DNA of 64,000 nt. Origin: Bernardetiaceae bacterium. Lineage in GTDB: Bacteria; Bacteroidota; Bacteroidia; Cytophagales; Thermoflexibacteraceae. Numbering within the stretch: the first letter of the stretch is position 1; each line of letters begins with the position of its first letter. The stretch spans positions 241,025-305,024 of the forward strand of contig JANWWZ010000003.1 of the NCBI GenBank assembly GCA_025057115.1. Reading direction: 5' to 3'. This document shows, piece by piece, positions 27,113 to 27,486 of the stretch. The notes under the pieces were generated by a model that saw nothing but the letters and a program-made list of their open reading frames with translations, was not told the DNA's origin and did not search any database. A program made the translations under genes and the position numbers.

Positions 27113-27212
27113 ATTTATAAAGAAAGGGGGAGAGAACAGGCTCTGTGAACCCTTAGCAACCTGAAGGCAATTTCAAGGTGCTAATTCCTGACCCGAAAAG
27201 GGAAATATAAAT
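27113..27212 (+). promoter_or_regulatory. SAM-I (S-box) riboswitch aptamer
   Basis: P1 arms AUUUAUA (27113-27119) and UAUAAAU (27206-27212). Core ...GGGGGAGAGAACAGGCUCUGUGAACCCUUAGCAACC...GGUGCUAAUUCCUGACC... matches the SAM-I conserved blocks (GAGGGA/GGCCC/UGAA/GCAACC/GGUGCUAAUUCC). It lies upstream of metY-metX. Confidence 0.8.
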
Positions 27213-27223
27213 TAATTGCTGTT

Positions 27224-27352
27224 ATGAACACGTACTTATCATTCTCACCTAAGTCCTCAAACGCATCTCTTACTTGGACTCATCTCCGGAAACTAGCCTC
27301 TTTGCTTCATACCAACAGCAAAGTCATGTGTTGTTGTTGCTGTGGTTGTTAA
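27224..27352 (+). other. Candidate leader mini-ORF ending in a cysteine-codon run (…KVMCCCCCGC*)
   Basis: ATG 27224, TAA 27350-27352, 42 codons. An internal ATG at 27326 gives MCCCCCGC. It starts 12 nt after the riboswitch P1 and ends 134 nt before the metY ATG. Translation is unproven. Confidence 0.3.
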
Positions 27353-27486
27353 GCCCTCTGGTGGCTTGAGAAATCCAACCTTTTCTTGTTTTGCCCTCGG
27401 GAAGAGGTGCCGCAAGCACGTATATAATCACATAGCTATTTAACCATCCAGTAAAACTACAATTACCTTAAACCATCAGTAAAACC

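Follow-up and report, generated by a model that had tools for sequence, protein, structure and literature searches.

A SAM-I riboswitch adjoining a cysteine- and methionine-rich leader reading frame: a candidate relay upstream of metY-metX in Bacteroidota

The 5' leader of the metY and metX genes of a Bernardetiaceae bacterium (contig JANWWZ010000003.1, of which a stretch of 64,000 nucleotides, here called the window, was analysed) carries a SAM-I riboswitch aptamer, of the type that responds to S-adenosylmethionine (SAM), and, next to it, an open reading frame (ORF) that ends in a cluster of cysteine (Cys) codons. Comparison with related loci makes it highly probable that this ORF is a translated sensor of Cys and methionine (Met), gated by SAM. 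It is also probable, if with less assurance, that the composite leader reads SAM and the supply of sulfur amino acids through one relay, the translated leader ORF. A riboswitch and a leader-peptide attenuator, usually seen as separate devices, would then appear fused in series, the output of the riboswitch being translation of the sensor ORF.

A wider proposal, which we regard as possible rather than probable, is that across much of Bacteroidota the expression platform of the metY SAM-I riboswitch is neither a terminator nor a direct control of the enzyme gene but such a translated sensor ORF: SAM would set whether ribosomes can load, by way of the P1 extension and its rival hairpin at the transcript's 5' end, the Cys/Met tail would set the length of their stay, ribosome occupancy alone would shield the transcript from the termination factor Rho, without alternative helices, and three inputs would be combined, namely SAM, Met-tRNA and Cys-tRNA.

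Loci and features

The main sample consists of 160 metY loci from genomes and metagenomes, all from Bacteroidota, whose MetY proteins are 69-78% identical to that of the window; 146 of them have usable upstream regions. The genome and metagenome scans with MetY found no close relative of the window (identity at most 78%). The window's clade, with 12 relatives (L161-L172) whose MetY is 82-94% identical, was obtained via a protein search followed by contig look-ups, and its members are a Cytophagales metagenome-assembled genome, Rhodoflexus, Thermoflexibacter and Bernardetiaceae. A covariance model of the aptamer was built, and SAM-I was found upstream of metY in 110 loci. The features of the window's leader and operon are the following.

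27092-27115 (+): 5' anti-P1 (anti-sequestor) hairpin, with arms AGUCAAUUGC (27092-27101) and GCAAUUGAUU (27106-27115) and loop AAGG
27112-27213 (+): SAM-I riboswitch aptamer, P1 to P4; Rfam family RF00162, 77.0 bits for a gathering score of 44.4, model positions 1-108 of 108
27214-27223 (+): 3' strand of the P1 extension (sequestor), pairing with 27102-27111; the helix 27102-27119/27206-27223 ends one base before the leader AUG
27224-27352 (+): leader ORF, 42 codons plus stop, MNTYLSFSPKSSNASLTWTHLRKLASLLHTNSKVMCCCCCGC, ending MCCCCCGC just before the stop
27326-27349 (+): sensor codons AUG UGU UGU UGU UGC UGU GGU UGU (Met, five Cys, Gly, Cys), with UAA directly after
27353-27486 (+): untranslated spacer, 134 nucleotides, with a U-rich tract at 27381-27392 and a hairpin at 27378-27408; C-rich and G-poor towards metY; the output step presumably acts here
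27487-28812 (+): metY, first regulated gene, of the O-acetylhomoserine/O-acetylserine sulfhydrylase family (PF01053; TIGR01326, 684.6 bits for a cut-off of 495.1)
28873-29919 (+): metX, homoserine O-acetyltransferase, second gene of the operon (NF001209, 355.3 bits for a cut-off of 331)

A reading frame conserved next to the aptamer

Nowhere else in the 64-kb window, whichever strand is read, do five or more TGY codons (Cys, with Y standing for T or C) follow one another as they do at 27329-27343. Upstream of metY, runs of at least three such codons occur within 500 nucleotides of the gene in 67 of the 146 loci; counted in this way, the opposite strand has them in 10 of 146 loci, and other windows of 500 nucleotides have them in 30 of 842 cases. 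The Cys-codon leader ORF is not the product of chance.

A repeat of TGY codons can also be read as a repeat of YTG codons, that is, as poly-leucine, so that T/C variation at the wobble position cannot tell the frame; the frame was therefore tested directly on the 67 loci. An upstream in-frame ATG without intervening stop exists in 62 of them for the Cys frame, and in 19 and 11 for the other two frames; the median number of codons from ATG to run is 36, versus 11 and 4; and a stop follows within three codons of the run in 47 loci, versus 15 and 20.

In the window's clade, the start, the frame and the stop after the Cys run are kept in all 13 members, the window included. The ORFs of the 12 relatives are open for 32-50 codons from an ATG that always lies 11-13 nucleotides after the P1 motif ATATAAA, and they end in ...MRMCCCCCCC, ...QMCCCCCSCY, ...QMCCCYCC or ...SCMMCCCCC. 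Differences in the length of the Cys run are multiples of three, and the body of the ORF is scrambled by substitutions and indels. Since start, frame and stop are kept despite the divergence of the body, the pattern, as read from these alignments, is that expected of a translated sensor ORF. None of the 12 contigs has a gene called between the upstream gene and metY.

The arrangement extends well beyond this clade. At least 74 of the 110 SAM-I loci have an ATG at 0-18 nucleotides (mostly 6-11) from the 3' end of the aptamer, opening an ORF of 30-57 codons with a Cys/Met-rich tail; this count is a lower bound, at least two further loci having been missed where an earlier ATG was taken. Most of the remaining SAM-I loci belong to Cyclobacteriaceae/Algoriphagus, and their aptamer-adjacent ORF has just one or two Cys codons near its end.

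A first-pass annotation of the window had proposed an aptamer at 27113-27212 without a terminator right after it, and a 42-codon ORF starting at 27224. The Rfam scan returns the aptamer at 27112-27213, a consensus scan of 26900-27600 detects no intrinsic terminator, and the ORF, with its last codons and its UAA at 27350-27352, is exactly as described. The same annotation had suggested a tandem of SAM-I and mini-ORF with a terminal Cys-codon sensor, and the comparative evidence, both from the 13 clade members and from the 74 or more SAM-I loci, speaks in its favour: the alignments do not reveal a run that is kept while its frame or start is lost. The shorter version of the ORF that it also entertained, an internal start at 27326 yielding a peptide of eight amino acids, was dropped as unneeded, the long frame next to P1 being the conserved one.

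Several loci depart from the common layout. In the Cyclobacteriaceae/Algoriphagus loci L013, L022, L024, L028, L042, L044, L092 and L100, the aptamer-adjacent ORF has 25-46 codons with one or two C-terminal Cys and sometimes Met, and the distance from aptamer to metY is shorter, at 130-210 nucleotides; their ORF may represent the element in a degenerate form, or in one with a different tuning. In L077 (1709-2400), L079 (1799-2400) and L120 (934-1400), the aptamer lies 180-470 nucleotides upstream of a short leader ORF and does not adjoin it; these ORFs end in ..C(I)CCCCCMP or ..CCCCMCCMP. In L029 (1300-2453), L036 and L081 (654-1477), the module of SAM-I and Cys/Met leader is found 0.7-1.1 kb 5' of metY with another gene between, AhpC/TSA peroxiredoxin-like in L029 and OsmC-like in L081, both families being thiol-dependent peroxidases.

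Cysteine and methionine in the tail

The last eight codons of the window's ORF comprise six Cys and one Met. In a set of 71 leaders, whose median ORF has 42 codons and whose median distance from stop to metY is 126 nucleotides, Cys makes up 43% and Met 11% of the final 12 residues, versus 3% and 1.5% of the ORF body; the enrichment in Met was outside the selection criterion. Leaders dominated by Met exist as well, as in L069 (..CHMMMCMMMAR) and L138 (MMQMCMMCMC..).

Judging from these compositions, the predicted sensor is one of Cys plus Met, not of Cys alone. Of the Cys-codon sensing that the first-pass annotation had put forward, the in-frame Cys run stands, but not the restriction to Cys, since Met codons are co-enriched. 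Such a sensor would fit the enzyme, because members of TIGR01326 are annotated as bifunctional O-acetylhomoserine/O-acetylserine sulfhydrylases: by this annotation, enzymes of the MetY family produce homocysteine and are able to produce cysteine as well. The metY-metX operon can presumably bear on both sulfur amino acids.

Probable occlusion of the leader start by P1

The aptamer lies in the 5' leader of metY and metX, on the same strand, and has the same position in the 110 related loci. In the window, 10 nucleotides separate its 3' end from the leader ATG at 27224, and 273 separate it from the metY ATG at 27487. There is no space between aptamer and ORF for a separate expression platform. 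No terminator is present 3' of the aptamer, and the extension of P1 reaches the AUG of the leader ORF, not that of metY. An Rfam E-value scan of 27000-27520 found no significant family besides SAM-I; the scan of L005 likewise gave SAM-I only, and neither the ORF nor the spacer is covered by a known family.

In both the minimum-free-energy (MFE) fold and the enforced fold, the extended P1 consists of 15 contiguous pairs (27105-27119 with 27206-27220) and two more. The AAATTAATTGCTGTTATGAAC stretch and the aptamer are almost invariant among the window's relatives. Elsewhere the extension has another sequence and is still complementary: in C1, the largest cluster of loci, it is TTAATCG/CGGTTAA; the pairs directly before the AUG are CAG/CUG in Pedobacter versus GGU/ACC in Mucilaginibacter; and in L060 the AUG is itself part of the helix.

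In an alignment of Pedobacter and Mucilaginibacter, all three AUG-adjacent pairs are changed on both sides, in 16 cells, and the observed covariation score of the extension is reached by none of 500 shuffles. The AUG-adjacent pairing holds in 96% of cells in register, versus 29-45% when the partner is slid by 1-3 columns. A count of contiguous pairs based on regular-expression anchors, which suffers from register errors and bulges, is not significant (p = 0.21); the duplex energy gives p = 0.001, and the alignments were used to settle the question. On this comparative footing, binding of SAM would most likely shut P1 together with its extension, and prevent ribosomes from initiating on the leader ORF. 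A gating of the leader ORF by SAM, raised as a possibility by the first-pass annotation, is thus supported by a covarying P1 extension that ends one base before the AUG.

Initiation in Bacteroidota proceeds without Shine-Dalgarno pairing and depends on unstructured mRNA. Published findings make a gating by P1 a reasonable reading. In SAM-I riboswitches, the 3' side of P1 can contain the ribosome-binding site (Barrick & Breaker 2007, PMC2258182), and those thiamine pyrophosphate (TPP) riboswitches of Bacteroides that lie less than 20 nucleotides from a start codon act on translation (bioRxiv 10.1101/867226). In Flavobacterium johnsoniae, mRNA structure is reported to tune initiation (PMC6847099).

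The 3' arm of the 5' hairpin at 27092-27115 doubles as the 5' strand of the extended P1. This hairpin (-10.8 kcal/mol) is nearly invariant in the relatives. In Pedobacter/Mucilaginibacter, 98.8% of cells retain its AGUCAA:UUGAUU pairing, and the changes there are one-sided only; one double-sided change is found, in cluster C1 (alignment A5, columns 44:64). Over the segment 27088-27235, the global state with extended P1 is computed at -39.8 kcal/mol, and the state with the 5' hairpin at -36.0 kcal/mol: the two are nearly isoenergetic, and by this folding model the gap of 3.8 kcal/mol is what a switch would need. For C1, RNAalifold paired an upstream TACGTTTG box with the 3' strand of P1; this pairing was rejected, the box being the -7 promoter element, outside the transcript.

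The spacer and its helices

From the leader ORF's stop codon to metY, 134 nucleotides remain, in and around which several helices can be drawn. A hairpin at 27349-27369 (-6.4 kcal/mol) overlaps the stop codon, and two others are found at 27378-27408 (-11.5 kcal/mol) and 27311-27346 (-12.4 kcal/mol). A composite hairpin at 27343-27380 (-10.9 kcal/mol) abuts the U tract at 27381-27392, and competes with the hairpin at 27311-27346, which is preferred by the fold of the naked RNA. The overlapping, mutually exclusive helices of the first-pass annotation are among these: they can indeed be drawn, but they are no better than dinucleotide shuffles and are unconserved in close relatives.

None of the window's spacer helices is conserved in its nearest relatives, which share instead a hairpin GCGCUGC-CGUU-GCAGUGC with a U-rich tail. 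The folding of the whole leader is not unusually structured (z of -0.86 and -0.27), and the upstream hairpin at 27311-27346 has z = +0.5 versus dinucleotide shuffles. Neither in the window nor in its clade does any set of mutually exclusive terminator and antiterminator hairpins show conservation or exceed chance. The ORF segment CGGCAGC was considered as an antiterminator for the relatives' hairpin, and dropped, as it fits only L164 and L168.

How well the Cys tail complements the 55 nucleotides on either side was compared with dinucleotide shuffles in 82 leaders, with a mean z of -0.24 upstream and -0.28 downstream; pairing of the Cys run with its flanks as a selected structure was rejected on these values. 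Pairing of the Cys run with the metY start was rejected as a general mechanism, the mean z being -0.11. This lack of excess complementarity to the flanks or to the metY start suggests, at the level of sequence, an output that does not depend on structure.

Other groups have other elements after the ORF. In Pedobacter and Mucilaginibacter these are hairpins with pyrimidine tracts and short stems that resemble terminators; Hymenobacter has a hairpin at the stop codon followed by a C/U tract. A U-rich 12-mer (at least 9 U) is found within 65 nucleotides after the stop in 22 of 71 loci, versus 7 and 11 in control segments.

In cluster C1 (L001, L003-L005, L008, L015, L016, L026, L039, L084, L085, L091 and L099), an invariant CAGCAACA box is complementary to the Cys run. 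It is followed by a long covarying hairpin, UAGCC..GACC-CUGCC-aaGUGAc-AGGCAG..GGUUACGGCUA, with an invariant GUGAC loop, without Rfam match and without U tract; the element lies about 25-90 nucleotides 3' of the leader stop (alignment A1, columns 89-146). In the window, AACAGCAA (27314-27321) is a perfect complement both of UUGCUGUU before the leader AUG (27216-27223) and of UUGCUGU in the Cys run (27337-27343), and CAGCAA recurs at codons 2-4 of metY (27491-27496), a copy that is not conserved in relatives. These complementarities could be a long-range switch or chance.

Relatives without SAM-I

Among 20 loci that were negative for the SAM-I regular expression and were checked by Rfam, 13 are without SAM-I and yet have Cys/Met-rich leader ORFs. 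In L088 (590-830), L002, L011 and L107, where the metY ATG is found at about 900 to 2500 in locus coordinates, the Cys/Met cluster is in the middle of the ORF, and a strong canonical terminator follows the ORF. The cluster reads ..NPxTFGNAV-CC(M)CCC.., conserved in L002, L011 and L088, and ..MMHMCCCC.. in L107. The terminator of L088, AAGAGCGGCCUUCCGG...CCGGAAGGCCGCUCUU and then seven U's, reaches -33 kcal/mol; in the loci without SAM-I, such stems of up to -33 kcal/mol precede runs of 5-9 U's, with weaker versions in L128 and L160.

The hairpins and U tract of a terminator-type attenuator were seen only in these loci without SAM-I (L088, L002, L011 and L107). Their anatomy indicates that Bacteroidota use Cys/Met leader-peptide attenuation at metY, with ordinary terminators where needed, and that the SAM-gated version would be a distinct design.

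Proposed mechanism and alternatives

We propose a mechanism in three steps. In the first, whose anatomy is observed, bound SAM would let P1 and its extension form, burying the initiation region of the leader ORF; when SAM is absent, the 5' hairpin at 27092-27115 would hold the shared strand, and the leader ORF would be translated. In the second, the body of the ORF would be a spacer of about 40 codons and arbitrary sequence, and the last 7-12 codons, Cys and Met, would be followed by the stop, a layout whose conservation is observed; low charging of Cys-tRNA or Met-tRNA would cause ribosomes to stall in the tail. In the third and weakest step, ribosomes on the leader would keep the transcription of metY-metX, or its mRNA, alive, with the greatest effect coming from a ribosome stalled at the 3' end of the ORF with others queued behind it. 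Most likely, these ribosomes would keep the C-rich, G-poor leader out of reach of Rho, or of a weak intrinsic terminator; a leader left untranslated at high SAM, or quickly vacated when Cys and Met are replete, would lead to termination before metY. The net logic would be that SAM acts as a veto, and that starvation for Cys or Met lifts expression at low SAM.

The sign of the third step comes from three premises: SAM must repress, SAM would block leader translation, and the relatives without SAM-I would be induced by starvation. It follows from them jointly that metY expression would be promoted by ribosomes on the leader. By analogy with TnaC or mgtA, the simplest output mechanism would be protection from Rho; an output via a weak intrinsic terminator or mRNA stabilisation is possible. 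The model in which occupancy acts through Rho is a tentative one, possible rather than probable.

A number of observations weigh against this mechanism. The translation of the leader ORF, the stalling, the response to SAM and the sign of the regulation are all things we infer from sequence. The ligand-free MFE already prefers the extended P1 by 3.8 kcal/mol, so that any switching would need to happen kinetically, as the RNA is being transcribed. Most of the AUG-adjacent covariation is a contrast between two clades, with few independent events. The conserved hairpin that follows the ORF in the window's relatives folds alike when the RNA is naked, when a ribosome is stalled and when it is at the stop, and has no role in the model. 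The support for the third step is indirect. In its favour, C outnumbers G in the ORF body of 67 and the spacer of 70 among 71 loci, versus the metY coding sequence of 21, and the segment 27220-27323 of the window has 23-26 C and 10 G per 78 nucleotides; but C exceeds G also in 24 of 38 upstream regions of the window, so that the control is not clean. Finally, with a veto by SAM, Cys sensing would count at low SAM only, and the physiological sense of this is less evident than that of independent control.

Other outputs were weighed as well. A classical intrinsic attenuator would retain the first two steps and turn the composite hairpin at 27343-27380 (GGUUG/CAACC closing UUAAGCC/GGCUUGA), together with the U tract at 27381-27392, into a terminator: a ribosome stalled on the Cys codons would cover its 5' arm, and a released or absent one would let it form. 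The hairpin, at -10.5 to -10.9 kcal/mol, directly adjoins UUUUCUUGUUUU; Mucilaginibacter, Hymenobacter, L072 and L156 have comparable hairpins that take in Cys/Met codons or the stop and have a U/C-rich tract after them; the excess of U-rich 12-mers after the stop (22 of 71 loci, versus 7 and 11 in controls) and the true terminators of the loci without SAM-I point the same way. However, the standard terminator scan is empty, an internal loop of 6-7 nucleotides interrupts the stem, and the MFE of the naked RNA prefers 27311-27346 (-12.4 kcal/mol), which removes GGU from the terminator stem; moreover, a ribosome at the stop would cover the 5' arm too, the window's closest relatives have neither this U tract nor this hairpin, and cluster C1 is without any U tract. 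We consider this attenuator unlikely. Less likely again is a translational attenuation of the mycobacterial type, in which the unoccupied Cys run would pair with the metY initiation region (UUGCUG at 27337-27342 with CAGCAA at 27491-27496, and neighbours) and a stalled ribosome would free the start. This mechanism is demonstrated for mycobacterial polycysteine short ORFs (bioRxiv 10.1101/834739); in the window, the naked full-leader MFE does have the Cys run paired to 27478-27500, a region that is released when the run is masked, and the duplex with the metY start amounts to -18.5 kcal/mol. Against dinucleotide shuffles, however, the z of the window is only -1.55, and the 71 loci have a mean z of -0.11, with 3 of 71 below -1.64; CAGCAA is not conserved, the metY starts of the relatives being ATGTCAAAATCA; the pairing must span about 150 nucleotides; and repression of the untranslated leader at high SAM is unexplained unless the duplex is the default state.

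Two further alternatives would deny the tail its role as a sensor of tRNA charging. A functional Cys-rich micropeptide, for instance metal- or redox-active, or a precursor for modification, is conceivable to the extent that the ORF is conserved and probably translated, that a C-terminal poly-Cys could bind metals, and that the module precedes genes of the thiol-peroxidase type, AhpC/TSA in L029 and OsmC in L081. However, beyond its first two or three residues and its Cys/Met tail, the peptide is unconserved even at 88-94% MetY identity; Met codons are co-enriched; the ORF is always in the 5' leader of sulfur amino-acid genes, abutting the SAM aptamer; and no modifying enzymes are nearby. We give this micropeptide very little credence. 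Just as improbable is a purely structural role for the UGY run within the expression platform, with its frame incidental, or its reading as poly-leucine (YUG) in the +2 frame. In favour of such a role, the run has a possible partner in ACCAACAGCAA at 27311-27321 (-12.4 kcal/mol), the invariant downstream CAGCAACA box of C1 is complementary to it, and T/C variation at each third base is also synonymous in the YTG frame; but the Cys frame is open from the P1-adjacent ATG in 62 of 67 loci, versus 19 and 11 in the other frames, the stop comes within three codons after the run in 47 of 67, indels in the run are multiples of three, the interspersed ATG codons fit the Cys/Met reading only, and the complementarity of the run to its flanks is no higher than that of shuffles.

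Promoter and neighbouring genes

The leader is preceded by a shikimate kinase gene that ends at 27023, and the synteny aroK-leader-metY-metX is kept in the nearest relatives (L161-L170). One further feature was read from the sequence between that gene and the 5' hairpin.

27053-27084 (+): promoter-like region, with TTTG at 27053-27056, then 20 nucleotides, then TTTCTTTG at 27077-27084

Both boxes are conserved in close relatives (alignment A7), and the counterpart of the second one in cluster C1 is a perfect TACGTTTG (alignment A5). The -7 consensus of sigma-A in Bacteroidetes is TAnnTTTG (PMC9723704); the C1 box matches it, and the window's box matches it partly. A consensus scan for promoters in 26900-27600 found none. 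As placed by the promoter-like boxes, the transcript would likely start near 27090-27092, just before the 5' hairpin.

Elsewhere in the window, the only other Rfam match is a tRNA-Leu gene with anticodon CAG, at 47082-47165 (-). An ORF of 145 amino acids just 3' of metX and on the same strand, at 29959-30396 (+), is without Pfam or NCBIfam match and is unrelated to the OsmC-like gene of L081. An ORF of 419 amino acids at 25175-26434 (-) is without Pfam match.

Implications

With at least 74 of the 110 SAM-I loci, a widespread unannotated small ORF is added to the genomes of Bacteroidota. If the mechanism proposed above holds, it would account for the long gap of 200-450 nucleotides between SAM-I and metY in Cytophagales, Sphingobacteriales, Chitinophagales and relatives, and it would offer a testable case of riboswitch action in Bacteroidota, whose expression platforms are poorly understood. 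A single leader would integrate SAM with the charging of Cys- and Met-tRNA, for an enzyme family that can feed both the Met and the Cys branches. On the wider proposal, relaying a riboswitch to a ribosome would offer a general answer to the problem of riboswitch action at a distance without Shine-Dalgarno initiation.

Relation to known systems

The full-text literature yielded no description of the arrangement of SAM-I and Cys/Met leader ORF, most subscription journals being outside this coverage, so that a prior description is possible; Rfam 15 has no model for it. Each ingredient is known: the SAM-I riboswitch, leader-peptide attenuation, Cys-codon leaders, dual sensing by riboswitch and leader ORF, and a tRNA-sensing SAM-I.

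The closest general parallel is with attenuators of the trpL, hisL and thrL type, which also have a short ORF in the 5' leader with clustered codons of the pathway, and in which the cluster and its frame are conserved and the rest of the peptide is not. Unlike in these, initiation of the ORF described here would be under riboswitch control, the sensor codons are at the extreme C-terminus before the stop, Cys and Met codons are mixed, and there is no conserved pair of terminator and antiterminator.

The E. coli tna leader peptide TnaC owes its stalling to free tryptophan together with a specific nascent peptide. If the present model holds, the likeness is that a ribosome detained where a leader ORF ends keeps Rho off, allowing read-through to the structural genes; the difference is that here hungry codons with uncharged tRNA would cause the stall, and that the role of Rho is a proposal.

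In Salmonella, the mgtA leader is said to sense Mg2+ and to contain a proline-codon ORF, mgtL, with premature, Rho-dependent termination as its output, as reportedly described by Park et al. in 2010 and Hollands et al. in 2012. The mgtCBR leader of the same organism has two short ORFs (PMC3641672). Both mgtA and mgtCBR resemble the present case in joining a ligand-sensing RNA and an amino-acid-reporting short ORF in one leader; here, aptamer and Cys/Met ORF are 10 nucleotides apart. With respect to mgtA, the ligand, the phylum and the RNA fold are different, and the mgtL ORF lies inside alternative stem-loops, whereas here P1 would occlude the start of the ORF directly.

Leaders with Cys codons have been predicted in Actinobacteria (PMC1262725), and uORFC-8-2 lies upstream of cysS in Rhodobacterales (PMC8632094). 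The polycysteine attenuators of mycobacteria, carried by leaderless short ORFs and forming a 'Cys ribulon', were shown experimentally (Canestrari et al., bioRxiv 10.1101/834739): there too, a polycysteine tract is found in a short ORF 5' of genes of sulfur metabolism, and ribosome stalling reads Cys limitation. The mycobacterial ORFs are leaderless, whereas the AUG at 27224 lies 3' of the aptamer and of a predicted transcript start near 27090, with about 130 nucleotides of RNA before it. The present ORF also differs in being 134 nucleotides from metY, in belonging to a phylum that does without the Shine-Dalgarno sequence, and in that pairing of the Cys run with the start is not general.

The SAM-I(Xcc) riboswitch of Xanthomonas campestris controls the translation of a met operon and also senses uncharged tRNA-fMet (PMC7270179). 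In both cases, a SAM-I riboswitch on a met operon would integrate a second signal about Met-tRNA; the platform of SAM-I(Xcc), however, binds the uncharged initiator tRNA directly and controls the Shine-Dalgarno sequence, whereas here the signal would be read by ribosomes at Cys and Met codons. Finally, translational SAM-I riboswitches (PMC2258182) and the start-codon-adjacent TPP riboswitches of Bacteroides (10.1101/867226) would share with the present leader a 3' strand of P1 that, with its continuation, holds the initiation region; an aptamer less than 20 nucleotides from an AUG is likewise common to them. Here, that AUG is the one of a 42-codon sensor ORF, with the enzyme gene 273 nucleotides away, and the anti-sequestor lies 5' of the aptamer. 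With respect to all these systems, what appears to be undescribed is the predicted direct occlusion, by the P1 of a SAM-I aptamer, of the start of a Cys/Met sensor ORF, the location of an anti-sequestor 5' of the aptamer, and the wide spread of this layout in a phylum where initiation is not led by the Shine-Dalgarno sequence.

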